A DNA stretch of 64,000 nucleotides from Psammoneis japonica (lineage: Eukaryota): positions 900,404 to 964,403 of the forward strand of contig QPGO01000001.1 in the NCBI GenBank assembly GCA_008632985.1, in the 5' to 3' direction. Shown here one piece after another: positions 8,690-64,000 of the stretch. The position numbers were made by a program, and so were the translations under genes. Under the pieces are notes generated by a model. It saw only the letters and a list, made by a program, of their open reading frames with translations. It was not told the DNA's origin and did not search any database. Positions within the stretch are counted from its first letter, which is position 1, and the number at the start of each line of letters is the position of its first letter.

Positions 8690-10750
8690 ACTGGGATTTC
8701 AACTGAGTCGAGTTGATGTTGGACGTGTTTCAAAGCACTGCGTTTGATGAAACAATTGAGGGCTCTGGAATTATGGCATTTTATGCCATGGAGACTTAAA
8801 ACAGTAAATGGGTTGACAGTCAAGCAGTGATCGGGTTTGCCAACATTTCCAAAAATGTGACAAGCAACAAAAATTGCATCACTCAACAACCAACAACATC
8901 TCAAGAGACAGAAACAAGAAAAGTGACTCCTCTTTGCACTTGAATTAAAAGAGACAACAATGCACAACAAACATTTGAGAAGGACAAGAACAAGCTCTTG
9001 AATGCATGAAACAAGAAGAGAGTCAATGAAGCAACCACTCTTGCTTCGAACCTCTTGACCTGTTCTGTCCATGATGGTGGTTGGTTGAGAAAGGTTGGTG
9101 GTGGTTTTTTGTGTGACTTGCAGCTTGAGGCATGTTGATGCATGAACACATTGGTGTCACCTTTGAAATGTGCCACTTGTGGAGCTTGAGTGGACAGCTC
9201 TCTGTGCTCAAGCTTTGTCCACCAAATGCTCCGTCAAAGTCCAGATGCTGCCCGCCCCCCATCCCACCCGACCATTGACACAAAACAGTTCTTGCAAAAT
9301 GTTGTTGCCTGTTTCCCTCTTCCTCTGCAGAGCAGCTCTCTTGGTGACAGTGCTGCCCACATCCCAGAATGTGCTCAAGAATGCTTTCTAACTTGCCAGC
9401 CAAGACACCCAACTCGGGGCTGTGTGGGCTCAAATCTCTCTCAAGACAAGCTGACATTTGTGCCTGGCACTGGTGGCAATGCTGAGCCCTCCTTCCCATT
9501 TGACTTCCCAGGAGTGTGCCCAGACCTCCTGCATGCCAGGTGGCTCAACCACAAGAGTCGCCATCTTTGCCAGCTTTGTCAGCAGGATGTGCCAAGGCTG
9601 CTCTGGCCATGTGTGCACCTGGCTGGCACCACAGTGCAAGGACAGCTGCGACAGCACTTTCTGCTGTCAGCAAAGAGTGTGAGCTGGCTGGACTGCCCAA
9701 CCCCACACTTCGCAGCTCCTTGGCAGTCACTCTAAATCACGTGCCAACTTGGGGTCAACCACACCTGGCTGGCTGCAATGCAAAGACAGCTGTGGCAGCA
9801 CTTTGTGGCAGAGTGTGAGAGCTCCTGGCTGGGCTCCCAACCCCACACTTCACAGCCCCTCAGCAATGGCTCCCAACCAAATGACAACTTGGGGCCAATG
9901 GCTGTGAAGTGCCATTGTTTCAAATTCCTGTGCCTGGCCCCTCACACAGCTTTGCACAGGGTCAACATGTGTGTGTGTGGCCTCTTTGCAAGATGGGCCC
10001 CTGGCTGGCTGCTGACTCAGCCACGGCTTGCAACAAGAAGCCACCACAACACAGAGCATTGTGGGGTGAGTGCAGCACAGCTTGAACAAGCAAACCATGC
10101 TGAGATCACCCAGAGTCGGCTGCTGTCCTGGGGCTCCATTCAAAGCTGAGCTGGGCTGCTTGGCTCCTTGGTGTGCAGCACATGCTTGGCATCACATTCT
10201 TGTCGCCAAGCAGCCACATGGCATGTGCCCACCATTTGTGTCTGCAACAGCGACCCCAGTCACAAAGAAAAAGTTGAACCTGCTTTTGTGGTTGAAGAGT
10301 GAAGAAACTGTGAGTGAAGTTGGGCTCAAGATTTGTTGGCAATGCCAAGTGGGCAGCCAAAGAGAGGCACCAAAAATGGCTGTTCTTGCTCATTTCTCAA
10401 GAGGAGCTTGCACTCATGATGCAGGGTCTGAAGCAAGCACCAGTCAAGATGACAGTTTTTTCTCTCTGCCCCACTTGAAACACAGCCTTTGAGTCAATGT
10501 GGTGCTCCTTCAACAATTCGCACACACTGGGATGAGCAGAGCTGGAGCCAGGGCAGCTGGCCTGGCAGGGCTTGGCTGACACCCAAGCTGGGCTGCTCAG
10601 CTTGGTGGCACACACTCAGTGTCACATCTCTTTGCACCTGCAGCAACCACCCTGGACCAAAAGAAGCCAGTGCAACTCTGGCCCTGGTTGCATGGTCAAT
10701 TGTGTGTGTGTTCAATGGTCGAATCCCCTCTTTTTTTCTCTTTTCCTTTT
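8690..10750. other. Degenerate TpA- and CpG-depleted block (unidentified repeat/TE relic)
   Basis: About 7 TA in 2 kb by eye, all in TAA/TTA context; Cys/His-rich, Tyr-free spurious ORFs in all frames. Confidence 0.75.
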
Positions 10751-11140
10751 AACCGGCCACGAACATGAAAAAATTGCCTGGTTTTCGCCAACGCGCAATT
10801 CTGACGTTTTGCGCATTCTACAGTACACGATTAAATAAGGCCGTCACGTGGAAGTACACAGTGACCAACACTGGCAACTTTGAACTTTCCAACGTTACTG
10901 TAGAAGAAGGGGTGAGATCACCAACCGAGTTTCGGGAGATTTAGACAATGATGGAAAGCTTGATGTGTTTGAAACGTGGATCTTCCTATGGAATCGCACA
11001 AGTCGGTGTCTACAACAACACCGGATCGACCGAGGCTACAGCGAACGGAAAGAAGGTTGACGACCACCTCGTATGTCGGTTTACAGACGTCGGTGTCACC
11101 TTCTGATGCTCCAACGAACGCGCCAACAGACACACCGAGT

Positions 11141-11282
11141 TCTTGTCCTTCATTCGCACCAACAAAGTATCCGACGGGCATTCCTAGTGAGGATCCTTCA
11201 GCTGCACCATCTTGTCCTTCATTCGCACCAACAAAGTATCCGACGGGCATTCCTAGTGAGGATCCTTCAGCTGCACCATCTT
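11141..11282 (+). repeat. Perfect 69-bp tandem duplication
   Basis: tcttgtccttcattcgcacc... at 11141 and 11210; encodes SCPSFAPTKYPTGIPSEDPSAAP twice. Confidence 0.95.
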
Positions 11283-12126
11283 CCGAGCGAATCTCCTAGT
11301 AGGATGCCTGTCGCTGCCCCATCCCGAGCACCATCGGCAGAACCGACTCTGCTCCCATCCTCAGACTCTAGCGACAAACCGACTTTAATGCCGACGCTGT
11401 CTCCTACTGCTCGTCCGAGCAAGAGCCCATCAGACCCCCTTTCTCAAGCACCAACGACAGTGGCTATTAAGATAGACACGCGGACCAACGATGACGATGG
11501 TATCGACATTATTGTTGATGAGCCTGTTACATGGACTTACACCGTCACTAACGAGGGTACGGCGCCCCTCGTCAACGTGTTAGTCATTGATGACATGATC
11601 GGTCAAGTTACGAATCTTGTGGATGGTGATATTGACGGCGACAACGAGCTTGATGTCGATGAGACTTGGGTATATGAAGCCGTTGATACTTCCAGGGCCG
11701 GGAACTACAGCAACACAGGAAGAGTTTCCGCTACGTCCGGCGAGGAAGAAGTTGAAGACGAAGATTCCTCATCCTACTTTGGCGCGAATGTATCTGTCAT
11801 GATTGAAACGCTGACCAACGGTGAAGAAGCGGGAGTTGAAATTGAAGCGGGAAGTCTCGTTACCTGGACATACATTGTTACCAATGACGGTAACGTCCCC
11901 TTGAGTAACATTCGTATCGACGATGATGAACCCGGTGTTGTACCGGTATTGATCTCGGGAGACTTGAATGGCGATGACATTCTCGATGTCGGGGAGACAT
12001 GGATTTACGCTGCCAATGGTACTGCCAGGACTGGAGACTACTTTAACTCTGGCACAGTAGAAGGTTCCTTTGGTGACGAAGACGCCGTTGACAATGACCC
12101 AAGCTCCTACTTCGGGTACAATGTCT

Positions 12127-12450
12127 CAGTAAAGATTGAAACTTTGACCAATGGCGACGATGGAATAACCCTGGATGTCGGCGATGGTGTCATCTGGACG
12201 TACGCCGTTACCAATGAGGGGAATGTGCCTTTGAAGAACGTTCTTGTCACTGGTGACCAAATTGGAGTGATTGAAAACCTCGTCTCTCCCAGTAAAGATT
12301 GAAACTTTGACCAATGGCGACGATGGAATAACCCTGGATGTCGGCGATGGTGTCATCTGGACGTACGCCGTTACCAATGAGGGGAATGTGCCTTTGAAGA
12401 ACGTTCTTGTCACTGATGACCAAATTGGAGTGATTGAAAACCTCGTCTCT
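12127..12450 (+). repeat. Tandem duplication with 163-bp period that shifts the frame
   Basis: cagtaaagattgaaactttgacc... at 12127 and 12290; one substitution seen (actggtgac vs actgatgac). Confidence 0.95.
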
Positions 12451-15300
12451 GGTGACGAAGACGAGGACGGAAAGTTAGACGTTGACGAGACATGGCTATA
12501 CCAAGCCACCGGCAGCGCAGTGAATGGCACTTACAATAATGTTGGAACTGTTGAGGCAAAATCCAGAGGACAAACGGTGGATGATGATGATTCCAGCTCC
12601 TACACTGCAGTCATTTCCAATCCTATTAGCATTGAAACTGTAACCAACGACGGTGATAATGTGGCAGTGGAAGAAGGTGAAGCTGTAACGTGGACGTTCT
12701 TTGTGTCCAACCTAGGAGACCAACCTCTCTCAGATGTTCAAGTGGTGGACAGCGGAGGCACGATCCCAACGCTCGTTGGTGGAGATGATAACAACAATGG
12801 CATCCTAGAGCCTGGTGAAGTATGGGTCTTCCAATCAGACGGACTAGCAGGTGGAGAACCATATTCCAACATCGGAACGGTCACTGCCATTTCCAACGGC
12901 GAAACGGTCACCGCAGCAGACCCAAGTTCTTATGTTGCGGAGAAACGAATTAAGATTGTTACGCGGACCAACGAAACGGACCACTTTGCCGCTGGTGTTG
13001 GTGAGGTCGTGCAGTGGACGTATATTGTGACGAATGAAGGCGACGTTTCTCTCTCCGACATTGAGGTGACGGATGACAAGGGTGCAACTCCGTCCTACTT
13101 ATCGGGTGACACCAATGGTAACGACGAGCTTGACCGCGGAGAGACATGGTTGTACGTAGCAAATGGTATCGTCGAACAGGAGGGCCCGTACAACAACACG
13201 GGAATTGTCTCAGCCAAATACAACGGAGTTGACGTCATATCTCGAGACCCGACTTCGCATGTCGGGTTTGCTTTTCCTAATATCCGAATCAACACTCGAA
13301 CAGAGGGAGGAGACGGGCGAATGGTCAGCGCCGGTGAGAACGTGGTCTTTACCTACGTTGTGAAAAACGTTGGTGACGTGCCTTTGTCCAACATCACCGT
13401 CACTGACAACAAGGGAGTAGTTCCACTCCTTGAGGAGGGTGACACCAATAACAATGGCATTCTTGACGTTGGCGAGCGATGGGTGTACAGAGCCGTCGGG
13501 ATTGCCGAAGAGGAACCATATGAGAACATAGGGTCAGTCACTGGCATGTTTGGTGACACAATGGTAGAAGACGACGACCCAAGCTCCTACACGGTTGATG
13601 TCCCGGCTGATTGCCAGGTGAGACTCATCGCCAAGACCAACGGAGGGGACGACAGAATTATCCTTCCCGGCGAAGCAATCACTTGGACATACAAGGTCAA
13701 GATCATAGGAAATGCTCCGGTTACCAACATTCAGATTAACGATGGTCAAGGCGTGACCATCAGATACGAGGAAGGCGACGACGATGGCGACGATATTCTT
13801 GACATAGACGAGGCATGGGTCTATGTTGCTACTGGAACAGCCACAACCGGCGAAACAAACACTTTTGCCACAGTCACAGCCACGTGCGACGACCAAGAAA
13901 TCTCTGCATCTGATGAAACGGATTACTTTATACCAGACATTGACATCGAGACGGAGGTGAATGGCCTAAATAGCGACACCGTGGAAGCTGGCGACGAAGC
14001 CATTATCACATACATAGTGACCAATCGTGGTAACGTACCCCTACGAAACATCATCTTCTCCGAAATCGATCAACGCATCTTTCCGGTTCTGCGGGAAGGT
14101 GGAGAAAACGGAGTGCTTCAGCCCAGCAACGTGGGTTTGGGAAGCGCGACAAACCGCAGGGTCGCCGGGCTTGACACAGCTTCGGGGTATGGTCAGCGGG
14201 CGCTATATTGTCGACGAATTGGGGATTGACATAGAAGTGAATGCGAACGACGAGAGTTCGTACTTTACCCCGGGCGATCAGGGATGCATGCCAAGTTTCT
14301 GGAGAGAAAACGATGCTGCTTGGGTAACCTACACACCAAACGAGAGGTTTGATATCGTGTTCGAGGTCAACGCAGAGGGCAACCGAGATCTCTTGGACGT
14401 CGTGTCGGAGACTGGCCAACCTAACGCCTTTGCCAGACACGCCGTGGCGGCCCTGCTCAACAGTGCTAATCCAAACATTGAGTATGGATTGTCACCAAAT
14501 CAAGTCATTGACCTCTTCCAGGACGGATGGTTCAACAATGACTTTGAGACAGAGCTAGAGATCTTTCAGAGTATGAACGGAGCGTCTTGTCCCTTCATTG
14601 GAGAAGATCCAGAAGGACCAAGAGATTGAAAAAACAAGACATGTGAGCATCATTGACATTATAAAAGAGAAGGGTCCATCTTAATTCATGAATGAACTTA
14701 CCTTCAAAGCGCTCTTCCGCTCCATCCGTCCCGCAAAATGATGTGTTCTTGAGCCTTGAGCATCGCGCCCATGTTCCGGCACCGGAGAAAGCACCTAGAG
14801 GACAAGACACTGAAGTGCCAAGGCAGTGAGGGTCGTTTGCATGTGTTTAAAAGAGAATACCACCCCCCATCAGGATTTAACTTTCCTCTAATGCGTCCCA
14901 CCTCCGCTGATATTGAAGCACTCCACAACAAGCGAAAAGCGAAATGTGTTGTGATCAGGTTTTCTGAAAAGCAAAAATCGCACTCGTTTGCACAGAATTC
15001 CAAAGAGAAAGCCCAATCCAATATCAACACTATATGACAAGACTCGAAAATGGGGATACAATTATTGTATCCACAGTCCAGGTGCTGTCGTATTCGTTGC
15101 CGTTCGTCATGGTGACAAGCCGAATGGTGTATCATACTGTTGTTGCGTCTTCGCCCAGAATTCCAAAATTCTGTTGGGTAATGACGCATGTGTACCGGTA
15201 GTAGATAAATATCTACGTCAATTTTCTGGTATATCGAGTTTTGTACCAGAGCTACGGAGGACGCCACGAGCCACGCGACGAAACAGATGATGCGGCTGCA

Positions 15301-15771
15301 TGCCGCCGCTTTTCTCGTTCGTCCTTCGGTCGACCCGGATTGGGAGGCTAGGCAGCAAGTGGGACAGGTGGTTAGGAGTGGAGAGTGCTTTACTAGAGTG
15401 CACATGACGCCTCTCCAAATCCCAAGCTGGATGGCAGGGCCAGAGGGCGGGAGAGGTGGGAGCGATTAAAACTGTCTGGTTGTTGCTTTGCTCTTCGGAA
15501 GAATGAGAGGTGCAACAGGGAAACAAATCGTCCCGAGGTCAGAGAGTCATTTTCAACGGTTTTTCTGTGGGGTGCCGATGACCAACGGTCATGGGCCCCT
15601 CTCGTCCATTGGACTTTTCAAGGACAGCGGCTGCCACTGCTTTTCTCGTTCGTCCTTCGGTCGACCCAGATTGGGAGGCTGGGCAGTGAGTGGGACAGGT
15701 GGTCAGGAGTGGAGAGTGCTTTGCCAGTGCACATGATGCCTCTCCAAATCCCAAGCTGGATGACAGGGCCA
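15301..15771. repeat. Pair of ~140-bp direct repeats (15301-15442 and 15632-15771)
   Basis: Shared ttttctcgttcgtccttcggtcgaccc...ctctccaaatcccaagctggatg; offset 331 bp. Confidence 0.95.
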
Positions 15772-15858
15772 CCAGCGCCTCCCATTGGCGACATGGAGTC
15801 GGAACGGGCCACGAGTCTTGGGTGGGTGGGTGAGCCCGGCTAGCGGGCTGGTGGTGAA

Positions 15859-16800
15859 TCACGGAGGTTCCGGATGAACGGGAACCTCCGCGCTTGGGTG
15901 GAGGACGAAGTCTCCACCCTCCAACATGCGTCTGGCGAAGTTGCGCATGATGGGTTCTGCCTGGAGATGAAGGCAACGAAGCATCTCGTCCAATCGCCAC
16001 TGGCTCAAGAGCCAGATGATGTCGGTGTCAACACGGGCGCAAAGCAATGCCATGGCGCCGGCAGCTCGGAGACAACGGGCCGAAACATCAGCGGGGTTGA
16101 AACCCAGGTTGGCGGGGCCAATGGCAACGACAGCGGTGCACAGCACGGAGGAGATGTCTGCCAGTGAAACACGATGCCATTGATGATTGGCAAAAGAAAC
16201 TCCCAGCGGGGTGTCTGGGAGCGCTCCATGAGCGCGAAGGTGCTTGACGCGCTCAATGAGAGCGAGGACAGGGCAAAGTTGGGGATGGCCAGAGCGGCCT
16301 AAACCAAGAACTTTGCCACGGATGCCATTCTTTTGATTGGTGAACGCAAGTGTCACAAAGGTGGCAGCATCAAGTTGGGCATCAGTGGCTGTCCAAATGT
16401 CAAGGCAAACACCGCCCGAGGAGAGCCGTGCGTCAGCGAGGCGGAAGGGGGTGGTGTCGGATGGGGTGGCGGTGCATTCGCCAGGCCGAAGGAGAAAAAA
16501 GCAAGCCAGTGCAATCATGCTGGCAATGGCTTTTGCTCTCATGTGGGGTGTGATTGCGACGGTGTGGAGTGTCCAAAAAAGGACTGCAATGGGGACCGGT
16601 TTGACCCGGTTGGGTGGAGGATCCTCTTTCTTGTGATGGCAGATTTGTCGGCCAAGGCGGAAGTCCAATTGGCCTTGGGATGTGAGTCGGGGGTCTTGGG
16701 TCCCCACTGCCACGAACATTTGCCCAACCTGATGCACGGCATCTTCAGCAGTGCGTGCGCGGATGGGATTTCCACGGGGGCAATGGCGCCAGTCCGGCAC
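15859..16800 (-). pseudogene. Tyrosine recombinase, catalytic Tyr replaced by Cys
   Basis: FFLLRPGEC, FTNQKNG, LCPVLAL, SARCLRAAGAMALL, QWRLDEMLRCLH (expected GRWxSDxxxRYL). Confidence 0.9.
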
Positions 16801-16968
16801 CGATGTGGGAAGACTTGAAGGTAGACGACGGGGTCGGAAACGTCTTCGAGGAGTGGGTCGAGGGCCAGTTGGGTGCAGAAATTGGACCAGAGACTCCAGT
16901 GGGTGTCAGCGGCGGAGGATCTTGAAGCAGTGACACCGTGGGCAACGGCATGCTGCACAGCGCTGACA

Positions 16969-18454
16969 TCACGAATGAACGCAGCGCGGGTGGTGGGGCC
17001 CACATTCGCCAGGAGGAGATCTGTGGACAAGCAGAGTCAAAATGGTGCAAGAAATCAGAGTTGGAGAGGCGTTGCATGCAAGAAGCGTCATCTGCTGCGC
17101 CGCTGAGGCAGCCGGGGAGATGGTCGTGGAGGCCAATGTGACGGTGATGGCGCTGGTGGTGGGCTTGGCCCAGGAGGAGATGGGAGGCTGGTTCAATGGT
17201 CGTGCTGGCTCCTTTGCGTTGCTGAAACATGGTGTCGAGGTCATGGTGCAGGAAAGGAAAGTTCGTTCCCTGATGTCGCAGCAACCCGCAATGGCACAGG
17301 ACTGAATGAAGCTGCCTGCGAGCTCAAGGTCGGTGTTGGTGATGGGACCTTTGGGATTCTCGCAGGTGGCAAGGCTGGCGGTTGCGTCCTTGGGAAAGGG
17401 CATGCGCCACACAATGGGGCCCAGGCGTGTGTGAGGGCGGACACGTCCGGTGCCAGTGCGGAGTTGAGTGGCCCGTGGTGCAGCTGTGGGAGTCGGCAGC
17501 AGGACGCCACCGGCACCATGGCCGGCTGCGTCGTGACAACCACCAACAGCAGGTTCCAACGGGACCAGCTCTTGAATGCGGGTGGGACGTGCATCCAGCA
17601 TTGTGCAGAGGTCTCGAAAATCATCGAGAATGGTGTGCATGTTCTCCGCAAGCCGGAGGCGTGCGTCAGGTGCAGCATGGCAGAGATTCGCCTGCAGAAC
17701 GGAGAAAAGTCTTCGGGCTCTGGGCAAGGCAACAGCGAGTGAACACAATTCGCCCAAGAGCTTCTGGCAATCAAGGACAGTGGTGTGGCGGCGGCTCCGG
17801 GGAAAGTCTTGGTGCAGTGTTTGGCGAAGGCGCTCTCGGCAGCGTGGTGTTAGCCGCAAGGTCATCGACTGAGTGTCGATCAACCAGCCGAGGACCTCCT
17901 TCTGTGTGGACCACGTTGCATCGCCCTTGCGGAGATTTTTGACGGATGTGGGCTCCTTGCGAGTGGGCAAGTCAAGGGAATCGGCAGGGCGAAAGATGTC
18001 GTCGATGGCATGCATGACAACTTGGTGTGCATTGCGGCGGGCAGTCTCATCGCCCTGTGCTGCACCGATGAAGTCGTCAACACAAACGTCGATGTATGTC
18101 GTGCATGTCTTCCTGCAAAAAATCGATGTGCTCGCAAGCGGACTTGTGTGGCCCCCTGGTGACACTTGCTTCTAGCTCTTCGGCTGTCCACAGTGAATCG
18201 GCAACTGTGATGGGCGCTCCCCGTGTTCGGCAGTGGCGCAAGAGCCTGTGGGCTGGATGCCCTGCGGCCTTGTGGAGCTGACCCCAGTCTCCTCTCTTCC
18301 TGCGACGGTGAAGGAGGTAACTGAGACCTTTTTGACGAAGCACAAAAGCATCCTTGAGAATTTGCTCACCCAATTTATCCAGCTCAGAGTTGGCAATGGT
18401 CTGCCCATGAAGAGTGGGACGACCATGGCTCTGCTGAGCATGCAGATTCTCCAC
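16969..18454 (-). pseudogene. RT/RNase H of the YR retrotransposon, internally deleted and frameshifted
   Basis: RGPHKSA..H..FL; YIDVCVDDFIG; KEVLGWLIDT; RNase H CHDAAGHGAGGV and ITNTDLELAG. Confidence 0.85.
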
Positions 18455-18544
18455 CTGCGGGGGTGGCGGGTCTGGAGCCGTCGCCAGTTCCAGATGAAAA
18501 GGCTCTCGGCAGTCGGTCCCCGAACCGATGCCGCTGCCGAATTC

Positions 18545-20340
18545 TCATTCGGTCCTCCAATGCTCCATGGCCCACTCCAGGAGCGCAGCCTGCTCTGCAT
18601 TGGTGTGGCATCCGTGATGGTCATTGTGGGAACCACAGCTGGTGTTGCATTGGTGCTTGATGTGGCAGGGGAGGCAACGGGCAGCGCCATTTGAGTCAAT
18701 GGGCAAGGCAATGTTGTTGCGAGTGCAGCGCTGCTTGACATCACGTCATTGCATGTTTGGGCAGTCACGAATGGCAGAAAAACGGTCATCACAGTTCTCG
18801 TTGCAGACAATGGAATTGTCGCCCGGAGTCTGAGCTTGCCCAGCAGGTGCGGGTGCAGGTGCTTGGGCCGATCCCGGATGCTGAAGCGGTCCCGTCGGGC
18901 CGCATGTTGGTGGGGCTTGGGGTCAGACGGCGATCGGCAGTGGACGCTGCCAATTCATGGTGCCCTTGGCCGCCTCGCAGACAATGTTCTTGGGCGTGAA
19001 TGGAGTGGGATTGTGCATGGATTCTTGATCCTCAAACCAATGATGGATTTCGATCTGGACATGGCGCTGGAAATCTGCAGGCAGCGCAGGGCAGTGCGTC
19101 ATCTGCAGTGCAAGATCATTGGCGCAAACGTCCACAGAGCGGCGAAGGTCCATGAGGCAATGGACGACCAGGTGGGCAGCGCCTGAGGCCGCAGACAGGA
19201 CCACCTGGAGTCCATCAAGTGGGTGTTGGACCGCCTGCATGGTGGTGGCAACCTTCGCATCGTCCGGTGCTTCAAGGACCATGGTGTTGGATGGGGAGGG
19301 CGTGCCCATTCCACCATGAATTTGGCGGCACATGGCCACACGGTGCGCAATCTGTTCCGCCTGTTGAGGAGTGGCAAGTCCAAAAATGAAAGGATTGACA
19401 CCTTGGGTGAGATCATCTTCATTGTGTCCGGCCAATGAGAGTTGAACAAGTTTGGTGACCATGCTGACTGAGATTGGGACCTCAAAGCACACGTTTTGTG
19501 CCTGGCGTTGCTCGTCCACAGCATTCTGCACTGCAGTGATCGGCCCAGTCTTGGGTGCAGCGGCCAAACGTTGCCACAAGGGCGGAAGCTGATTCTCTTG
19601 ATGCACCTGGCACAATCTCATGAGTTTTGTGACACCGTGTTCTCCGCAGAACTGCACCGGCGTCTTTCCGCAATTGGCAGCCTGTTGGTGGGCTTGGGCA
19701 TCCAAACGCTGTTGCCGCTGTTCCGTGGTGAGGTCGTTGACAGTGCGAATGATCAGCTGGAACTGCGGTCCCGGCACAGCCGGTGCCTTGAGTCCAGGAA
19801 GGTTGTGCTGCACGCGTTGGTCAAAGAAACGAATCAGATGCTCGTCAGGCAGTTGAGGGACAGTGGGCCACTCTGTGCAAACCGCCGACTCCTCGCCATT
19901 GGCTTGCGTCGCGACACATGCGATGCGCAAAAAATCCAGAAGTGCCCAGCAATCGGCCACTTTGTTGGCTGCGTCAAGCGCTCCACACATGCGAGTGCAT
20001 GCCTCCTCAGGGGTCAACGGCTCTGGCAGGAGCAGCTTGACCAAATCGAATGGTGCGAACATGGTTCCTCTCGTCCGACGTCCGAACCTCCTCTGAGTCC
20101 GCATTGTTTGCTGCTGCAGCCGGGTGCAACCCATTGGGCGTGGCGATGATGTGGGTTGCCAGAGCCACATCAGTGGGAACCCAAGTCCCTTGTGCGGCCA
20201 ACGCAAAATGCGCATCCGGGGGTGTCGCAACGGTGTGCTGTCCTTGGCGCAGGTTGCCGACGATCGTGAACTTCTGACCATCCCATGGCTGGGGTGGCCC
20301 TGCGACCGTGGTTGGATGCAGAGCAATGCGATGGCAGACA
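18545..20340 (-). pseudogene. Gag-like ORF1 of the YR retrotransposon
   Basis: Long ORF 18923-20473 (LMRLCQV...LPPLWQRLA). A downstream frame gives a C-terminal Cys/His motif CLPCHIKHQCNTSCGSHNDH ending at about 18545. Confidence 0.7.
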
Positions 20341-22686
20341 TGAGTTTGTCATCAATCATTCTCAAAGCACTCCTGCGACACACGGTTGTCTCTTCACTCT
20401 TGGATTGCCTTGACACCCACACAGCAAAGACATGGATTTGACAGAAGTGAGTGAGCAAAACATTTCCTCCCATGCTTCAATGGCTGATGTCACACGCTGT
20501 CCAAGCTGCAGCAATGGTGACTCTGACAACAGTGTGAATGAGCACCCAGCACTTGAAAAGAAGCAACCTGCCATGGTGGCAACCCCGCTGCCAAGCGCCA
20601 TGAAATCAACATGCTTCAGAGCATCTTCATTGCACAGTGCTGTCCAACAACTGTTGTTGAGGATGTTGTTGGGCAATTGGCCACAATCATTGATGGGAGC
20701 ATGCACTGATTGTCAATCACATGAGTGCCACCAGCTGCATGGCACTCTCCCCCCAGTCTTGCAGACTGGGGCCTGTTCAGCCTGTGGCAGTGCAGCATCA
20801 CAAGTCACAAGCACCTGACACTGTGGGTTGTGGTTGTCATCTCAGAGAAAGCAGAGACTGCTGTTGTCAGCAGCTCATTTGTCCTGTCATGATGTTTGGT
20901 GAAGAAGTTGAAAATCGTTCCAGGAATCTTGCAAAAGTTGGAAAATTGAAGAGGAGGACTGAAGGATGAGGAATGAAGAGGAGGTGAGTTGCTCGTTCAA
21001 CATGTTTGATCCTGTCAGTGACTTCACTTAAAGCCAATTGCAGGAATCAATCCAATTCAGCCAAAGATTCTCAGCAGAAGGAGCTGCAAAGAAGAAAAAA
21101 TGAAGAGAATGAGAAAGGACCCAGCTTTGCACCACCTTTGTGTTGAGCATTTGCAGCTTGCTGAAAAGTCATGTGCTCATGAGCAAGAATCAGAGAAGAT
21201 GGGTGACACTGCTGGCAGGAAGCAAAAAAGAATGAATGACGATGCAACTGGAAGGAAGCAGAGAAGAGCAGATGATGACGACCTTGCCAATGTGGGAAAG
21301 AAAGATTTGGCACATGAAGAACATCTGGGATCAAGCAAGAAAAGCAAGGCCCCAGAAAGTGAAGCACAGATCAATCAAAAGAGGCAAGCAGTTGCAATTG
21401 ATGCTGCTGCCCAACCAATCAAATTTGCACCAAACCCCATCGCCCAACCCACCAAAAGGCACCCCAATTTGCCAGCAATGGAAAAAGACCATCAGAACAA
21501 AGCAGGCCTGTTGGTCAGAGAAACTGTGTCAAAGGCCACAGGAGCCACAAACCAAACAACTGACCAGCAAGGGAGTGCAGCAGTCAAGCTGTCAGCAATG
21601 TCCAAGAAAACCAAAATCTTGGCAGCTCAGCCTGTGGATGCCAAGACTCAGAAAGACACAGAGCTGAAACCAAGAAACCTGAAGTCTCAGCATGCACCAG
21701 CAATTGCAAAGAAGCAGAAAAGCTTGGGAAGTGTTGAGGCAGTTCATTTGGGTGCAAGTGCAGAATTGGAAGCCAAGAACAACAGCAATGTGGGTGGTGC
21801 GGTTGCATCTGTCTTTTGCCACAAGTTTGTCCTTCTTGTTTTGGCATTGATGTTTGCCACTTTTTGCTGCTGCAGTTTGGGACCTCCAGTGCTGGGGCAA
21901 CAGGAAGTCAAATTGATTGACATGGTGCAAGAACAAGGGGAATCCATTCAAGACAATTGCAGCAAGATGTGTGACAATGCCAGTGGGAAGCACAAAAAGA
22001 GCAGGTGACAACCTGGCCAATGCGGAGAAGGAAGATTTGACATGTGGAGAACTTGTGGAATCAATGAAGGAAACCAAGGCCACAGAAGGCAAAGCACAGC
22101 TCACCCAAGATGGGCAAGCAGTTGTGACTGATGCCATTGCCCAACTGGAACATCTGCTGATTTGCTGGCACAGTTTAACCAAGAAGCATTTGTGCCAAAG
22201 CCTGTTGCCCAACCCGCCAAAACACATCCTGTGTTATAAAGTCACTTCAGCATCCAAAGTGAGGGTCAATCTTGACTCTGAACCCATCAACAGCATCTCT
22301 GAGTCAGAGTCATTTGCTCAGAAACCACCTGCCAAGGTGGCATCTGTCAACAGTGGCTCTGAATCTGAGTCTTTTTTACCACAAAGCCATCCTCCAAGTC
22401 AACTGCCAGTCTCAAATCTAGCTCTGCATCAGTGACCCATGGAAAAGGCCTTGAGTTGCAGGTCATCAAACCCCACCATCTCATGGCATGCGCACATCTG
22501 CAAACATTGGTTGACCCCCCCTCCAGATTGAAGTCAACATTCACTTGTTGGGAGTGCAACAATTTTGTTTGTTTTCACCATCATGATTGGCACATTTCAC
22601 ACTTGTTGCTCCCAGACACATTTCACTCAATGTGCACTTGTTGACTTGGATGCCAACATGCCAAGTGACATGGCAGCATTGCTCTC

Positions 22687-23050
22687 TCATCTCTGAACAG
22701 CTGCATTTCATTCCAACTGAAACATGTTTGTTTTCACATTGTGCAAGCATTTCTGCCAAAAGCGCTGCATTTCCGTCCATGATGTGGGCCAATCATTTGG
22801 CAAAATTTTCACCTTTTTCTGTTTCCCCCTCAAAACCCAACCTCACTGTCGACTCGCCACAATGTCATCTCTGAATGAATGAGTGCATTTTGTTCCAACT
22901 GAAACATGTTTGTTTTCACATTGGACATGGCATTTCTGCCAAAAGCGCTGCATTTCCATCTTCATGACCAGTGTCAATCATTCAGCAAAATTTTCACTTT
23001 TTCTGTTTCCCCCTAAAAACCCCATCCTCACCACTGACTCCTCACAATGT
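22687..23050. repeat. Diverged tandem repeat of about 180 bp, 2 copies
   Basis: ttccaactgaaacatgtttgttttcacatt...catttctgccaaaagcgctgcatttcc occurs at about 22711 and 22893. Confidence 0.9.
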
Positions 23051-27475: not shown

Positions 27476-27500
27476 GAGAGAGAGAGAGAGAGAGAGAGAG
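27476..27500. repeat. (GA)n microsatellite
   Basis: About 12 GA units. Confidence 0.95.
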
Positions 27501-50838: not shown

Positions 50839-51559
50839 CAAGCTTTTGTAAACGTGCATGTCGGTCTCAGTTCGATGACGGTACCGGTAGATGTTGTGTA
50901 GACTAGCGCGATGTAGAAGTAGCTTTCTATGAAGGCGCTAGCTAGACCGAATGGCTATCCCGTTGATGCCATTAAGATTGTAGCTATGCCCTTTCTACTT
51001 CTATTCAATCAACATCTTAAAATCAACGCAACCAGCTTTCCACGAGAAGTTGACGTATGATATTGCCATCAAACAGAAGCAGTAGAACACACAGTAGTAC
51101 TTGAAACGCTTGTTACTGGTCTATCGCACGGACCTCTCATTGTGTATCGTCGCCGGACCGTAACCCACGTTGCCTTTCCCGACGAGCATATATCGCCGCA
51201 CGGACTTTGTGTCACGGTACGAATGGCACGAAAATAATGATAAACGCTACTACTGCATAAGCAACACACGAAAAGAGAAGGACGTTTGGTGTCATATCAT
51301 ATCGTTTCTATTAACTCTGCAAGATGGGAAGAAAGAAGGGTACGTCTTGTGTGTCGTCACGTATTGTTACAGAGTTGCGATGGTATGTATGTAAACTACC
51401 GGAAGGTATCTACTCTATAGATCTATGATTCTCAAGTCTGAATTAACACAAGCCCTTGGATACCATACAATGAGCTTTTTTAACAATTATAGGAAGACAA
51501 GCCAGTACAAGCTGACATTCTTCACGTCGGGATGCCGAATCTGTCATGGATTCAATCTT

Positions 51560-52500
51560 CTCCCAGTAGCTGCGAATATTTTGCTGCACACTCTCGCGTG
51601 ATTGCTTTGTGGACGCTTGTTGACGTCCTAAGGACTATCCTGATTTCCATCCTAGCTTCTGAAGCAGTTGATTCCCAATATTTGTTTCGCCAAGATTCTC
51701 TTCGGGGTGGACGACTTGAGTCGGTCGAACGTTTTGTTCTTCTGCAATCACGGGGGGCTTGCGTCACTGTCTCTGGACCATACCGGTACATAAAGCGACG
51801 CTCATTGGCACGATCTCGGTAGGCAGCACCAGCCTTGTCTGCAGCAGCGTCGGTAGCCATTTTCTTTTCTAGATTTTCCTTGTGTAGCGCAGACTTTTCT
51901 TCGTACTGTCGGAGCTTGCCGATGCTGGCGAACTTCCTCTTGCACAGCACGCAAATAGGTTGGCCCTTAGCCGTCTTGGGTACTACCACGTCAGCGGCAG
52001 TAGGCTGCTCGTTACCACGCATTTCTTTTCCTCGTTCCGACCACATGTCCATGTGAGCAGCATGTTTCTTTGAACCCATGTCTCGGTCGGCTCTTTGGGA
52101 ACTTTGGCAGTCGTCACCTTTGTAGCATCCTTGGAGGCTGTGGATTTCGGAAGCTTCTTCGTCCTGAGCGAGATGGCAATCATTTTCGTTTCGCTCGGCT
52201 TGGCCTCTGATTTCGGCACTGCTGCTTCAGCTGTCTGCTGGTTTGCAACCTCTTGAAAAGGTGGGTCCTGTCCCGGGCAATGGGAAAAGCACTGCTGCTT
52301 CTTGTTTCCACAGCAAAGTTTCATTTTGGGGTCACAGAAAAAGCCACTGGCTGATCCGTAAAAGCATCCTGACCGAGCGTCAAAGACGCAGGCTCCATGC
52401 TCTTGAAAGATGGAAGGCCATTCCAAACTGTGACTCGGAGGCGGTGGTGGAGACGACCTTTTCTTTTGGAAACGACGACGTCTAAACTCATCGGCATCCT
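51560..52500 (-). pseudogene. RBM5/RBM10-like fragment: OCRE, C2H2 finger, G-patch; disrupted
   Basis: OCRE-like xVFDARSGxFYGSASGFFxDPK; ICVLCKRKF...SALHKENL; YRDRANERR; NIGNQLLQKLGWKSG*SLGR with an in-frame stop; frameshift near 52080. Confidence 0.8.
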
Positions 52501-53172
52501 CACCCAGCTGCTCTAGAGCCTTGCCAAAGTCACTTGTTTTTTGCCGACAATCATCGGTTCCCTCTCTGCGGGGCGGCGGCTCATTGCACCAAGCGCCGCA
52601 CCTTGATCAGCGTTCCTCTTGTACATGATCACGAGTTTGACACTGTCAACAAGCATCCAAATGAAGCGATGGTGCAAGAGACAATGCAAGAACGCTTCCG
52701 ACCAAACTTGTCAACCGCACCTCCAAGAAAACAGGGTTTGGGCCGATTTCTGGCACAAAACTCACGCAGAAAATTCGCGTAGAACATCTTGTTCGTCGTG
52801 CTTTTCCCATGCTTTGCGAAAAACAGGCCACGACCTCAAGGAATCGATTTCAGTCATAACGGTTGACACTTTGCATGCTTGCTTTTTGATGACAAACACG
52901 ACAATGTCCACCGTTCGGCAAAATTCCATCATTGGAAAATGTTTGCCGTGGTGGTGCCGTGGTGAAGTGTTGATCGAATTTCTGAAAATGGAATTTTGAA
53001 GTGTTCACGCACAGAATCGTGTTGCTTGTGCAACAGTCATCATGTAAAGTGTCAATGGTTTCAGGGGAAAACGATTCCTTGAGGCGTCGGTGGAGCAGAG
53101 AAGCACGGTAGAAGCACGAGAAAAAAATCGGCCCAAACCCTAATTTTTATAATTTTTTCTACGTAAAATTTC

Positions 53173-57587: not shown

Positions 57588-58199
57588 TGTTCAGCAATCG
57601 ATTTGCTCATCAATATTGTTGGGAAACTTTGTTCTTCGTAACTTTTTCATTTTTATGTGCTCCTTCTGGCAATTTGCCGTAGTGTCCCGTTCAAATAACC
57701 ACGCATTCGTTACACACTCGTGACTGACGTCGCGCCTAGAGAACATTCTTCGGTTCGACTCTCTACTACTGAGGACCCTACAGTATTCGCGGCAGGACTC
57801 ATTTCGCGTTCGACCCACGTGGCCTACAGTGTGCAGGGATAGCATACAAGTAGCTTATATCTAAAAGGTAGAGATTTGCTGTTTTGTGTAAAATTATGAG
57901 ACTAGTTGCACGTACTGTGTAAGCATGGGTACGCGCGCGATAGTAAGACATACGGAGCTGCAGTCCTCGCGCGAAAAAACCAGTCACACTCGGCCAATCT
58001 TGCGCGATGGCCAGCAGTCGCGCCGTGACGACACGACCGCACGCAGCCCCTGTGCATGGAACTCCAGCAGCAGTCTGCCGACAGTCCAGGGCTTCTAGCC
58101 CTAGACTCCAAGCCAAGCAATGAGAGGATGCGATTGGCTGGCAGAGTCGCGGGGGTCATCACGGGAAGCAGAGGACGAGCGTGGGACAGACTGGAGACC

Positions 58200-59180
58200 G
58201 AGGATGGAAGGACGACAGATGCCACGAGATCCCAGACATGACCAATCCACGCATTGTTCCCTTGGCAGTCAGCATCTCAGGGGTTGCAACCATGGTCCAC
58301 TGCAGTGTCCATGCGTCATTGCAAAATTGTCACCCTGGTGGCTGTTGTGGGGTGCGGGTGCGGGACATGCGTCCCCTGAGAGTTCTTTCTGCTTTTTCGA
58401 TTCTGTGCTCTGCGGAGCAATCGGACAGTGATGCAACAGTGCGACATTGCATCGTTGTTTGTCGGGCCCCTGATGGGCATGTTTGTGCTGTTGCAGCTTT
58501 GTGCCACATTTTGAGGGTGGTCTCCTCATTGTCAATGAAGCCGTTTTGTGGAGTTTTGCTGCTCCCTTGGGTTGTGCCCTCGTCTGAAGGAGTTCAGCCA
58601 CATGCTGCCGGCCATGGTCAACTCCTCCCCCCAGCTGATTGGTGGGCAAGGCAGTTGTCATTCATGCACACCTTTGTAAATGTTGGACAATTGCGTTGAC
58701 CTGTTCTCATTGTGCACATTCTTCCTGGTCTTGCGCACTTTGCGCAGTGACCAAGTGTGTGTTTGTCCACGCCGGAATGCAGTGTGTGGGCACGGAGCAT
58801 GTCAAGCATCTCAGCATGTGCCATTGTGCATGCATGCCTGTGCATGGAGATTGTTTGCTGGTCACACAGTTCATGGCCGTTGACAGATTTTGACATCAAA
58901 CACGATGATCATGTTGTGTTGTCTCCATTTTTGACACGATTTTTGACAGTTGTGGACAGGCTGCTCCACGTGCAGCATTTTTGCCAGTGGATTGTTGAGA
59001 GCACCTGCTCATAATTTCAGCTTTCAATTGTTTGACAATGGGTCATGAAGCTGTCAACTGATGATGTTTTCACCCTCAGCCGCTGCCATTCAACATGGTC
59101 ACAGTGCTGACATCCAGCGCCACACGTCGGCATTCCCATTCTTGGTTGAGAACAAAGCCTTGTTGGTTCAACGTTGCGTC
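58200..59180. other. TpA-depleted unidentified relic
   Basis: About 2 TA in 1 kb by eye; no confident motif. Confidence 0.55.
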
Positions 59181-59199
59181 CCAGAACAAATCATGATGT

Positions 59200-62100
59200 G
59201 CATCCCGCTGTCATGTCCAATCCAATGAAGATGACACAGTTTGCATTTGTGTGTTCCAAGTGCATCATGATTCTCACCCGTCCGCAGGCATTTGCATTGG
59301 CAGCAGACGACATGTCTGTCGCCGGGAGTCCATCAGATGAGATTGGGAGTCACACTCTGGTCTCTGTTGCCCTTCCCAAGTTTTGTGCATCAGCAACTGC
59401 TCTGTTGGCATTGTGATCAGCTGCAGTGCATCATCTTCCAAGGTTGACTCAGGCACCGGACACTGGCACTGTTGACGGTCCAGCAAGCATGTCGGAGGAG
59501 GACCGAGTCATGACTGTGGAACAACTGCATTTCCCTCCACCCGCAACTGCAGAGGACCACCCACAGATTGTGGTGCTGCTGCTTTTTCTGCCACTGCCAC
59601 TGGGTGAGGCCTTCTCCAGCGGCACTTGGTTGGATGAACCTGCCCCAGATCTGGATGTGGACTTCCCCTTGGGTGGTGTGGAAGCAGGGCATGCAGCATC
59701 TTGTGGCTGACAATGACGAGCAATTGGTGACAAAGCAGGGTGGCCCTCTTTTCAATGTTGCCAGTTTGGAGGAGGTTCCAGGTTTTTATGGACTCAATGT
59801 TGTGGAGCCATTGCTGCAGGTCAATGATGTTGCAATCCTGGCTCCCATTGCAGATTCACATGGGTCAGCGAAGCAGTTCGTGAAAGCAGCATTCGACACT
59901 TCACCATGGGGCTTGCTTGGAGCAGATCCAACTGCTGATGACAATGCGGTGGCACAACCTGTGGGAGGAGATGCTGGCATGGGTGGCAGAATGTCAAATC
60001 ACCAGATTGTGGCACTGTGTCAAGGAATTGCAGCACCCCACCCCCACCCCCCAAGTTGCAAGGAGGAAGAGCATCTTGAGGTTACTGTGGACTGTGGAGT
60101 GCACTTGGCATTGGGAGCTGGCAACTGGGTGCACCCCCCCTCCCCCCCACCACCACCACATTTGCACTTGGGGAACTTTGTCCCAAGTTTGTCATGGTGC
60201 TCAAGATGACCGACAAATTTGTCGTCACCCACAAGTTTTTGGACATGGTGGCTCACATCCTTGCAGGATTTTGTCAGAGCAACTCATTTTTGGACCAATC
60301 AGCGAAATTCACACACAAAGTTGTGAATGAGGCATTTGAGACTTTGATCCATTTGTTTCATGTCCACACCTGTGCAAGCTTTGTTGTCAAAGTTTTTGAT
60401 TGTCCTCTTGTTGGAGCCAAGTGTGGCGGCGGCAACCTGGGAGACAGTTGTGGATGAGCTCTTGAATCTCCCCCTTCAGGAGCAGCAAAGCCAGTCCAAG
60501 TCAGAGGTGGCAGTGTCGACTCTGAAGTTGTCTGTCCTCCATGCCCAGGGAAGGATTGCAACTCCACAAGATGCATTGACTGCCATTTGCAACCTTTGAG
60601 CGTTTGGCCTCTGTGTGACACCTGACTTCAACCAATCTGCCCTGTGGTGGTTGGTTGGGATGTGTTGCAACGTGCTTGATTTGGAGTGCAGCAATGCATG
60701 GTTGGGTGAATGTGTTGCTGGATGTCCAGAACATCCTGGTGGATCACCTGATTGTTGGGAACCAGCCCATGTGTTGCAAGGCAATTGTGTTGGGTGGTGC
60801 TGTTGATGGGTGCATTTATGACCAGGCAAACGCAATTGCCAAGCAGCTGATTTCGGAGTTGCAGATGGCAATTTTGTCAGGTTATCCTGGGTGTTACAAT
60901 GCAATCACAGATGTTGCTGCAAAGCTCATTCCTGACCTGAACAAGTCAGGGAATGCAGCAAAAGAGCCTGCGCCAACTGGTGCTGGCATGGCAGAGGAGC
61001 TGGCCAAGAAAGAGCAGAAGATGATGTCGTCCAAGGAGGACAGGGCAGGAGAAGCACAAGAAGCTTGGCATTCTGGCACACAGCGGGGCTGGCAGGCCTC
61101 CAAGGATGTGCCCAGTCCATGCTAAAAAATTGTGCAACTCTGCGGTTGAGGAGTGCTGCTGTGCCAATTTTGTGCTGATTGGTTGTTTTTGCATGAATGC
61201 AAACTGCCCGGCCCTGAGCCGCACATCACAAATGCCAAAGTGCTCAGCAATGAGAAGGAGCAGCAACTGTGCAGATGGGTCAAAGACACTGAGGGGCTTG
61301 GTTTTGCCCTGGGTGAAGGCCCAACTGGTGAGGTCACTGCTGCAGCATGAGTTGCACTCTGTTGCACACCCTTGTTTTGGAGATGAATGTTTGTTTCTGT
61401 GTTGATCCCCATGCTGTGCAGCATCCAACATGAACTGACGTGGTGCACTTTGTCATCCTCATGTTCCAGCATTGCACAATGCAAGCCCAACAGTCCCCAT
61501 GCTTGCTGATCCATCAAGTTGCAGTCCAGGGTTTAATCCTCCTGTGTTGTTGTCCAGTCTGGCCATGGAACCATCAGAGGCGGACACAAACAGGGCAATT
61601 GGCAGCAAGGTGGGCCCTCTTCCTGAACCACTCAGAAGGTTTCTATCCCATTCTGTTGCAAGTCACAAAGGACACTTGCGGGTCACCACAAGATGTTCTC
61701 CCCACCATCAACAATTCATTTTGCAAAACGGAGTGGGAGGTGTCAAAGTGCAAGCATCTTCTGTCATTGGTCCAGGCCATGCCAGACCAACCATTTGGCA
61801 AGGAATCTATTTTGCAATGTTTTCTTGCAGAGGCGTGCTTGCATCATGTCTTGATGCCATTGCAAAAGTCTGGATTTTTGACAATGTTGGAATGGCTGTG
61901 TTTTGCGACATCAATCCCCGAGGCACAAGAGTTCACAAAGCTGGTCAAAGAACATGGCAATGCCAACTTTGGAGGAATCCAAGGACATGCCAAAGACTGG
62001 CAGAATGTCACAAGTGTTGACAAAGAGTGCACAGATGTGGCATCTGTGGCCTCACTTCATTTCAATGGAGATGTTGCTGCAACAGTTTGATGAACGGGAG

Positions 62101-64000
62101 GTCCTCATGTTGGGCAGCATTGCCACATGGACGCAATTGAGCATTTCTTAAGTTGTGCAATTGATGACAAGGATGTGAAGCTGCTGATCACTGCCAAAAC
62201 GGTTTGCCATCACACTGCAATGCAACATCAATGGAAGCAAACTTCCAAGCACACCTTCAGCACAGTGATCATTTGAGTGTTGACTCCAATCCCAAAAAGA
62301 CTCTCAAAACTGTTGTGAAGGATGTGAAGCGGGGAGGTGCTGTCCGTTTGACAAGAGCTTTTGACTCCATTTCTGCTCAACTGCCATGTGACACCTCACA
62401 GGATCATTGACTTTGACCAACCCCACAAGATGCCAAGACCAATTTTTGACAGCTTGTTTTGACCGGAGAAGTGGAGCATGACTGTCAAAGACTGAATGTC
62501 CAAGGACACAGAGCCACCCCTGTTGGACGAGAGCACAGAGATGGATCTCATGAAATGGATCTGCAATTTGCACATGTCCTGCAGTGAGGAGGAAATTGTG
62601 ATTGGTGACATCAATGTCAGGGGAGCTTCTTGCAATGACAAATGCCCATCCAACTGGTTGCCATGCACACAAGTGTGCAGGCCAGTTTTGGCATTTGCAA
62701 ACTGGGAACAACTTTGGGGACAATGCAAACCCCTTGAACTGGCAAGTTGTCACAATGGCTCATCAGCAGTTGTTGCAGACATTGTGGCATTCAGAGGGAG
62801 TCATTGGCATGACTGCCTCATTTGTGCCACAAATTTGGTTCTGCCCGGAACCTGGTGATGAGGACATTGCATCTTTTGCACCGGCAATGGCAGACTCCAT
62901 CAACAAGGGAGTGTGTGATGAGCACAGCCTCTGAACAGTGCCTCCATGCACACACCATGTTGATGACAATGTGTGTGTGCAGATGTTTGAGTGCACCTCC
63001 CATGAATGCCAACGGCAAGCGCACTGTCACCATTCTGTGCACTCTGTTTGGGCATGCCCTTCACATGGTGGGAAGGGCCTTCGACTCTCGTGCACTAGCT
63101 GTTGGAATGCTTGAAAGCAAAAAGGACCAACTTTTCAAGGCATTGACCACATGGATTGAACATGTGACCGCCTGTGACTTTTGGATGCTGCGGGCCTTAA
63201 CAGGCTGCTCAAGAATCACACAAGATGTGTGCAATGGGTGCACCCACTCTTTTTCACAATGCAGAATGACACACAGGCGGCTTTCAAGCAACACCATCAC
63301 ATCATTCATGATTGGTGGAATGAGGATGTCAAGGCAAAAAGCAAACTCTACACCAATTGCCCAATTCCCAGTGCAAGCAAGTTGATCAAATTGTTGCCAA
63401 GGAGATGGCAGCCCCACTCTGGCACACGCGAGCCAAAATCCACTGTTAGATGAACTTTGGCATTCACTGCACTTGATTCAGAATTGCCTGCAGACTCGTC
63501 CCAAGTCATTCTTGGAATGCATTGGGTTTGTCATCCCAAGAGACCCAGATGTCCGGAGCTGCAGAGATGCAAACATGGATCATGGGGGGGTGGCTTTTGC
63601 CCAACACTCCATTTCTGGTTTGACATGGGATGGAGCCCCACATTTTGCATGGTGTCAGGAATGCTGGGCCATCCACAAAAAAGGGCATCTCCATGTCAAC
63701 CAACAACCAACTGGGGTTCCTCATTGTCACTCTCCAGTTTGCAGGTGCAATGACACGCATTCGAACTGTGACATGGGAGCAAGCAGAAAGCTGTTTTCTG
63801 GATGGGGTCTCCCCCTTGGCCTGTGATGCTCTCCAAATGCAACAACACTGGTTCAGTGAAGTGGAGTGACAAGACCTTCACTGCATTGCTCTTGGCACAG
63901 GCCCTCACTGCCCATTTTTGTGAACTCTTGAAAACTTTGAAGATTGGACAAGATGCTTGGCACCTTGAGGGGATGCTGAACAAATTGGTGGATGCCATCT
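59200..64000 (+). mobile_element. Second, highly degenerate DIRS/Ngaro-like retrotransposon (ORF1, RT, RNase H); runs off the window
   Basis: Relic motifs LHFNGDVAA...GGPHVG, PRPIFDS, WICNLHMSCSEEEIVIGD, PPCTHHVDDN (62941-62970), RAFDSRALAVGM, and RNase H-like FWFDMGWSP / HVNQ..QLGFLIVTLQ. Many stops and frameshifts; no recombinase inside the window. Confidence 0.65.

Follow-up and report, generated by a model that had tools for sequence, protein, structure and literature searches.

Evidence for local TA to TG/CA hypermutation of a DIRS-like retroelement and further discrete blocks in the genome of the diatom Psammoneis japonica

A 64,000-bp stretch of the genome of the diatom Psammoneis japonica (GenBank assembly GCA_008632985.1, contig QPGO01000001.1, positions 900,404 to 964,403 of the forward strand; referred to in the following as the window) contains six discrete blocks that are almost devoid of the dinucleotide TA, one of which includes a DIRS-like tyrosine-recombinase retroelement. 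Comparison of this element with its relatives supports the view that the depletion is mutational and local, and that it runs from TA to TG or CA on both strands about equally. It is probable (roughly 0.6) that the blocks underwent localized hypermutation of this kind in place, by the same process as in the chlorarachniophyte Bigelowiella natans, accompanied by a slower decay of CpG. The diatom case adds a second instance of TpA hypermutation, on a transposon, in a distantly related host and carried much further towards completion.

According to the main text of the preprint on B. natans (Mettrop et al., bioRxiv 10.64898/2026.01.13.699255), two integrated viral regions received 231 of the 302 point mutations recorded in the nuclear genome of mutation-accumulation lines. 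All but one of these (230 of 231) were A to G or T to C changes, and all GC-biased ones affected TpA; they appeared in the chromosome itself while the cells grew vegetatively, roughly 1000 times as often as background mutations. The preprint further describes an over-representation of reverse transcriptase and DDE transposase domains among the TpA-depleted coding sequences of this alga, and proposes a homologue of ADAT2 as effector. An earlier, sequence-only reading of the window had taken the same spectrum for an undescribed pathway, which the measurements in B. natans contradict. This preprint was the only report of TpA hypermutation retrieved from the searchable literature; none was found for diatoms.

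Extent of TA depletion and identity of the retroelement

Blocks were mapped by the gaps between successive TA along the window. The 1,484 TA of the whole window (observed/expected ratio, o/e, 0.36) are spread very unevenly: the six blocks, together 28,249 bp, hold 88 TA (o/e 0.05), compared with 1,386 TA (o/e 0.59) in the 35,751 bp outside, at whose rate the blocks should contain 1,095 TA. As read from a table of 1-kb segments, 24 of 64 have a TA o/e of 0.16 or less. The longest TA-free gap measures 2,653 bp, versus 437 bp in the 328,529 bp of a related set of 80 retroelement loci, which served as the chance null. At the sharp block edges the change takes place over no more than tens of bases; for example, TA recurs every 10-30 bp until 34583 and is then absent before 34939. 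The mapped limits lie close to those of the six discrete blocks in the sequence-only reading, whose counts by eye (about 8, about 50 and about 16 TA in the retroelement, the remainder of block 2 and block 6) amount to 8, 51 and 16 by script. The blocks are as follows.

8947-10750, no strand assigned: TA-depleted block 1 (2 TA, CpG o/e 0.12)
15468-32650, no strand assigned: TA-depleted block 2 as a whole, consisting of the DIRS-like element (15468-20500) and the remainder (20501-32650)
20501-32650, no strand assigned: remainder of block 2, depleted in TA and CpG (51 TA in 20301-32600, CpG o/e 0.00-0.55)
34584-35833, no strand assigned: TA-depleted block 3 (4 TA), flanked by genes for a MYND/ARM protein and for aldehyde dehydrogenase
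48867-50058, plus strand: block 4 (1 TA, in TTAA context), coinciding with an LRR tandem array (49037-50064) and lying within an LRR open reading frame (ORF)
52124-53045, no strand assigned: TA-depleted block 5 (CpG o/e 0.89), overlapping the 5' half of a minus-strand OCRE-like/C2H2 ORF pair
58103-64000, no strand assigned: TA-depleted block 6 (16 TA, CpG o/e 0.27), continuing past the window end

Judged by homology searches, the region at 15.5-20.5 kb is a DIRS-like tyrosine-recombinase retrotransposon. Its predicted recombinase has 2,791 homologues at E ≤ 0.001 and contains the consensus blocks LLRPGE and GRWxSDxMLRYL; the 90 %-identity cluster of the top match contains proteins of the diatom Chaetoceros neogracilis. 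For the predicted reverse transcriptase (RT), 93 homologues were obtained (best E 3e-110), some of them with Pfam RVT_1. Both ORFs adjoin on the minus strand, RT and tyrosine recombinase thus being combined in one element as in retrotransposons of the DIRS order, and an ORF upstream of them, matched by 9 tblastn hits to related loci, is gag-like by position only. The only candidate for the terminal repeats characteristic of this order (inverted, or split direct repeats) is one 142-bp direct repeat pair on the 3' side; no 5' repeat matching it was found in the window. The three ORFs together contain a single Tyr among 1,265 residues.

15468-20500, minus strand: DIRS-like tyrosine-recombinase retroelement, TA-depleted (8 TA in 15600-20300; CpG o/e 0.72-0.79)
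15862-16905, minus strand: predicted tyrosine recombinase ORF (348 aa, 0 Tyr; the conserved Tyr columns 311 and 144 hold Cys, column 91 holds His)
16972-18171, minus strand: predicted RT ORF (Y/F-VDD motif present as CVDD; Cys or His in four mostly-Arg columns)
18926-20476, minus strand: upstream ORF, gag-like by position only (517 aa, 0 Tyr)
15301-15442, plus strand: repeat copy outside the block, TA kept
15632-15771, plus strand: repeat copy inside the block, TA sites converted to TG/CA

Direction of change, sequence context and CpG decay

The recombinase was aligned with 147 homologues, which have a median Tyr content of 2.3 % and of which only 2 lack Tyr, as does the ORF in the window (0 of 348 residues). 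The three columns with Cys, Cys and His in the window hold Tyr in 108 of 116, 111 of 144 and 67 of 118 homologues, respectively; the first of them, in the GRWxSDxMLRYL block, presumably is that of the catalytic Tyr. Likewise, Cys occupies the RT motif column that among 76 homologues is Tyr in 41 and Phe in 34 (YVDD to CVDD). The proposed destruction of Tyr-dependent transposon enzymes is therefore borne out by Cys in the recombinase column that is most often Tyr, as shown for one element.

At the DNA level, codon-level alignments of the window recombinase gene with the 80 loci yielded 2,178 pairwise positions at which a relative has TA (non-independent, since each site of the window enters the comparison with numerous loci); the window gene has TA at 0.5 %, CA at 21.5 % and TG at 18.8 % of them. 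Five intact loci subjected to the same treatment as queries kept TA at 18.7-26.0 %. The TA o/e of the 80 loci has a median of 0.61 and ranges from 0.38 to 0.87, none falling below 0.2, so that intact relatives are not equally TA-poor. The direction of change is also apparent within the 142-bp repeat pair, in which CTAG, TTAG and TTAC of the outside copy correspond to CTGG, TCAG and TTGC of the inside copy. On the coding strand of the element, the TA sites of relatives are represented by CA (19.6 %) and TG (17.5 %) at near equal frequency, in agreement with the previously suggested transition on both strands. No clustering into strand runs of TG or CA labels was observed (z -1.8 to +3.0, in a test diluted by pre-existing TG and CA).

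Other dinucleotides containing A are spared: the o/e of AA/TT is 1.21 in the blocks vs 1.14 outside, that of AT 0.90 vs 0.94, and at AA sites of the related loci the window keeps AA at 23.5 %, i.e., within the range of other dinucleotides. The A:T to G:C change is thus specific to TA, as had been supposed. This bears on error-prone repair synthesis of the Pol eta type in heterochromatin, one of the candidates of the sequence-only reading. Pol eta is known to give A to G changes at WA motifs, TA among them, but the other WA motif, AA, is not depleted, which renders this candidate very improbable.

Five of the 147 recombinase homologues (P0243, P0268, P0193, P0322 and P0280), encoded on metagenome contigs and 38-47 % identical to the recombinase of the window, have Tyr contents of at most 0.9 % and likewise Cys or His at Tyr columns. 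Judging from these sequences, they could hint at the same process in other genomes.

Surviving TA are distributed unevenly with respect to the following base. Relative to the outside, the density of the 88 surviving sites is 0.19 for TAA, 0.09 for TAG, 0.036 for TAC and 0.039 for TAT, and this effect of the 3' neighbour gives a chi-square of about 87 whether the DNA outside the blocks or the set of 80 related loci is taken as baseline. TTAA and CTAA/TTAG are about 4-fold over-represented among the survivors. The order of removal is accordingly TAY > TAG > TAA. Since survival is lowest before a pyrimidine, the agent would most likely deaminate adenine in DNA with a specificity like that of TadA/ADAT2, enzymes whose substrate in the anticodon loop, U-A-C, resembles a T-A-pyrimidine preference.

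Alternatively, thymine rather than adenine may be the modified base, namely if, in silenced regions, the T of TpA were oxidised by a TET/JBP-type enzyme, yielding 5-hydroxymethyluracil or 5-formyluracil that pairs wrongly with G and so causes the T to C changes. The palindromic nature of TpA and the equal shares of TG and CA suit a change of T as well as of A. Moreover, dinoflagellates carry 5-hydroxymethyluracil, with a preference for TpA and TpC, and mispairing with G is a property of 5-formyluracil. However, excision of oxidised T should add transversions, whereas the spectrum given in the B. natans preprint consists of transitions in 230 of 231 cases, and a neighbour effect located 3' of A, with TAY most removed, fits a reader of the A strand. 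Oxidation of thymine is therefore considered distinctly unlikely.

The gain of CA/TG (o/e 1.75 in the blocks vs 1.17 outside) does not derive from TA alone. CpG is reduced to an o/e of 0.36 in the blocks vs 0.93 outside, and low CpG is confined to the TA-depleted blocks. Measured as deviations from the counts expected at outside ratios, the blocks lack 961 TA and 1010 CG and have an excess of 1107 TG and 907 CA; lost TA and lost CG together balance the gained TG and CA, so that about half of the excess stems from CpG decay. The conversion of TA to TG or CA claimed in the sequence-only reading is thus real, but the loss of CpG, which supplies about half of the gain, had been overlooked. Replacement of mostly-Arg columns by Cys or His (columns 49, 111, 129 and 143 of the RT, 58 and 256 of the recombinase) fits CpG decay as well. 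Three TA-free parts retain most CpG, i.e., 16-20 kb (0.72-0.79), 48.9-50.1 kb (0.72) and 52.1-53.0 kb (0.89), showing that both processes are separable. As TA loss is complete where CpG is nearly intact, it proceeded faster than CpG decay.

Mode of mutation and alternative explanations

Read-derived contigs were available from sequencing run X1, the de Bruijn contigs of which were compared with the window; since X1 may be the assembly's own run, this comparison is independent of the assembler, not of the sample. The TA-free stretches 20310-22488, 24974-27466 and 27510-31863 are each matched by one X1 contig with 1-2 differing letters at a depth of 64-69, the same as that of the single-copy gene piece at 32021-33021 (67.7). 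The depletion is hence present in contigs built from reads, with the said restriction on the origin of X1. A second run from the same sample, X2, covers genes near 15.0-15.5 and 32.9-34.3 kb and almost nothing in the blocks, and a third, X3, gave no cover at all; none of the runs considered is recorded as RNA, and no conclusion is drawn from absent cover.

These data speak against an artefact in which modified bases at TpA in heterochromatin are misread as G or C. That X1 may be the assembly's own run, that one sample is involved, and that the ORFs of the element stay long, as misread intact DNA would also give, could be cited in its favour. Yet a misread palindromic site would appear as TG on one strand and CA on the other, breaking k-mer contigs at each such site; instead, X1 contigs of 2-4 kb are found at full single-copy depth with the 1-2 differences mentioned. 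Long ORFs are expected regardless, since TAA and TAG need TA. The related idea that the blocks are TA-poor by ancestry or selection leaves unexplained the Cys at the best-conserved recombinase Tyr and at the RT motif Tyr, as well as the normal TA content of the 80 relatives. Artefact and ancestry alike are hence highly improbable.

At a likeness of at least 80 %, X1 contigs indicate multiple copies for 15-20.3, 22.3-25.0 and 31.0-32.3 kb (up to 29 contigs at one place), including many diverged copies of the element. The stretches at 20.3-22.5 and 25.0-31.9 kb, by contrast, are at single-copy depth, so that some of the TA-free DNA, judged at this likeness, occurs in one copy. For a mutator targeted at repeats, as originally proposed, the evidence is therefore mixed. 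The LRR array in block 4 was considered as proof of such targeting and found weak, because the consensus of its 72-bp unit has no TA; only one clear column of the unit (TG in nine, CA in two cases) points to an ancestral TA.

Short recent repeats have kept their TA (253 bp, 100 % identical; 163 bp in two copies, 99 %; 54 bp in 2.4 copies). The first of these, a perfect inverted repeat at 1-253 and 1444-1696, is surrounded by DNA with ordinary TA frequency (o/e 0.70-0.75), so that a repeat of this size and age has escaped the erasure of TA. Two adjoining ORFs at 11073-14229 with DUF7507/DUF11 repeat domains contain tandem duplications of 69 bp (2.1 copies, 100 %) and 163 bp (2 copies, 99 %) that retain TA.

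Apart from the retroelement, the contents of the blocks provided few clues. None of 70 block ORFs of at least 120 aa, the three of the element included, reached E ≤ 0.01 in a Pfam scan at E ≤ 1; these 70 are the ORFs that remain of 79 of this size once nine overlapping the LRR array and the gene ORFs are set aside, the genes being scanned separately. PHROGs gave no match for any of 52 ORFs taken from block DNA beyond the retroelement, and the ESM Atlas returned no usable match for the ORFs 59514-60206 and 18926-20476. A blastx comparison of the whole window with fetched proteins gave matches only at the retroelement and at an HPP gene. Only one block is identifiable as a transposon.

Blocks 4 and 5 overlap ORFs of host type (LRR and OCRE-like). 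An ORF pair at 51555-52606 on the minus strand combines a C2H2 finger (weak Pfam hits) with an OCRE-like stretch (Pfam E 0.023), the latter inside block 5 and with Cys at positions where OCRE repeats carry Tyr. No homologues of the OCRE-like ORF (51986-52606) were found among longer proteins. Going by the weak Pfam hit, this pair could be a host gene or pseudogene that was partly hypermutated.

The element could also have been edited off the chromosome, as RNA or cDNA in the manner of ADAR or APOBEC, and integrated in a TA-free state, the other blocks being older insertions of this kind. Block edges are indeed as sharp as insertion boundaries, the sole identified block is a retroelement, and other copies show no excess of retained TA among 40 of the 1,842 differences. 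On the other hand, editing of a single strand would give one type of product, whereas TG (17.5 %) and CA (19.6 %) are about equally frequent on the coding strand and interspersed without strand runs. Furthermore, the terminal part of the repeated element (about 165 bp at 15303-15467, the repeat boundary being marked by a contig of another copy that diverges before 15303) keeps 5 TA, a normal density, with the rest TA-free. The repeat copy 190 bp further in has lost its TA. The mutated tract thus ends inside the element. In addition, the ORFs overlapped by blocks 4 and 5 are not retroelements, and the mutations in B. natans arose in place in single-copy DNA, according to the preprint. Editing off the chromosome is therefore regarded as unlikely.

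In the preferred reading, i.e., hypermutation in place, A:T to G:C transitions at 5'-TA-3' on either strand would give TG or CA and would be nearly complete both on the DIRS-like element and on DNA next to it that is probably foreign or silenced. A slower decay of CpG to TpG/CpA would be superimposed, as expected if these regions carry 5-methylcytosine (5mC). The agent would act on chromosomal DNA rather than on the RNA or cDNA of the retroelement, and what singles out the regions may be a mark of chromatin or silencing, or else homology, and not their sequence.

Several observations weigh against this reading or parts of it. The TA retained in the terminal part of the element does not agree with a model in which elements are targeted as a whole. 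Differences between the window and other copies of at least 80 % likeness are near equal in both directions (A>G 367, G>A 366, C>T 348, T>C 289), and much of the TA loss may predate amplification of the family. Of 40 of the 1,842 differing places, 23 lie in or beside blocks, mostly with TG or CA in the window vs CG in other copies, and four touch TA, these 40 being too few for a context spectrum across copies. The removal order was derived from the 88 survivors, not from observed mutations, and the deaminase idea draws on the specificity described for TadA/ADAT2. Finally, no effector gene was found in the window, and no deaminase domain turned up in the ORFs scanned.

One may speculate further, as a possibility that we hold to be rather doubtful, that diatoms carry a dedicated defence mutator which erases TpA in place in transposons and silenced DNA. 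Such a mutator would be a DNA adenine deaminase preferring 5'-T-A-pyrimidine, shared with Bigelowiella and either ancient in the SAR supergroup (stramenopiles, alveolates and Rhizaria) or spread among marine algae. If so, the effector could be sought, with two hosts so far apart, by comparing genomes that have the footprint with genomes that lack it, and builders of base editors would take an interest in an adenine deaminase that naturally works on the double-stranded DNA of chromosomes. Independently of the agent, the diatom case implies that the process is peculiar neither to one species nor to viral inserts, and that it is able to wipe out the catalytic tyrosines of a transposon together with two of the three stop codons. 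Two handles on the mechanism are provided, namely the order TAY > TAG > TAA and the loss of TA ahead of and independent of CpG decay. Diatoms are major primary producers with many sequenced genomes and, in some species, genetic tools, which renders effector and targeting signal accessible to comparative genomics and knock-outs.

Further features of the window were noted outside the blocks. A 6-kb region at 1981-8215 with minus-strand ORFs at 5405-8215, 3686-5209 and 1981-3810 is retroelement-like (Pfam RVT_1, E 9e-07). Its plus strand displays an extreme purine/pyrimidine asymmetry (GC skew +0.36 to +0.46, AT skew +0.29 to +0.36), and the very long ORFs encode much Ser, Pro and Leu, with 1.0-2.3 % Tyr. 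TA depletion is only partial here (o/e 0.19-0.28 at 4-7 kb), unlike in the hypermutated blocks. All named homologues of the HPP-domain ORF (39192-40574) are from diatoms (Amphora, Seminavis, Thalassiosira, Cylindrotheca, Nitzschia and Attheya; best identity 55 %). An 857-aa ORF at 45517-48090 on the minus strand has a predicted MTPAP-like nucleotidyltransferase palm domain of the poly(A)/terminal uridylyl transferase type.

Comparison with known systems

Repeat-induced point mutation (RIP) of ascomycetes resembles the present case in that dense local transitions inactivate transposons, leaving blocks of skewed dinucleotide composition with fairly sharp edges. RIP, however, converts C:G to T:A mostly at CpA, thereby creating TpA and lowering the G+C content, whereas here TpA is lost and CpA/TpG are gained; this opposite direction led to its rejection as the process acting here. 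RIP also requires duplicated sequence and a sexual cycle, whereas some of the present blocks are at single-copy depth.

Editing of A to I by ADAR or ADAT/TAD enzymes likewise gives A to G changes and prefers U or T 5' of the edited A. The substrates of these enzymes are RNAs, whereas the change observed here is fixed in chromosomal DNA on both strands, including DNA not known to have been reverse-transcribed. The 5' U/T preference of A-to-I editors is also argued in the Discussion of the B. natans preprint (bioRxiv 10.64898/2026.01.13.699255).

Deamination of 5mC accounts for the CpG loss, the Arg to Cys/His columns and about half of the TG/CA gain, but is unable to remove TpA, and the three TA-free parts noted above keep most of their CpG. 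As far as reported in the source considered here, diatom transposons are CpG-methylated, which fits the accompanying CpG decay, and diatoms carry DNMT4 related to the fungal RIP enzyme RID (PMC9998398).

The closest counterpart is the process in B. natans, with which, going by the main text of the preprint, the diatom blocks share the target TpA, both outcomes (TpG and CpA), the clustered TpA depletion with enrichment of CpA and TpG, and the sparing of other A/T dinucleotides (here AA/TT and AT). Both are confined to discrete regions, which represent foreign DNA in B. natans and of which one is a retroelement in the diatom. Differences concern the hosts, a member of the Rhizaria there and of the Stramenopiles here, and the identified targets, viral inserts vs a tyrosine-recombinase retroelement. 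They also concern the extent of depletion: the giant-virus insert of B. natans has a rho of 0.45 and the virophage insert is not depleted, compared with an o/e of 0.05 in the diatom blocks. CpG decay accompanies TA loss in most blocks here, while 'CpG' does not occur in the main text of the preprint, nor do the terms 'tandem', 'trinucleotide', 'context', 'flanking' and 'diatom'. The mutations were recorded in real time in B. natans, whereas they are known in P. japonica from sequence comparison. New aspects contributed by the diatom are thus the transposon as target, the near-total erasure of TA and the order of its removal according to the 3' neighbour.

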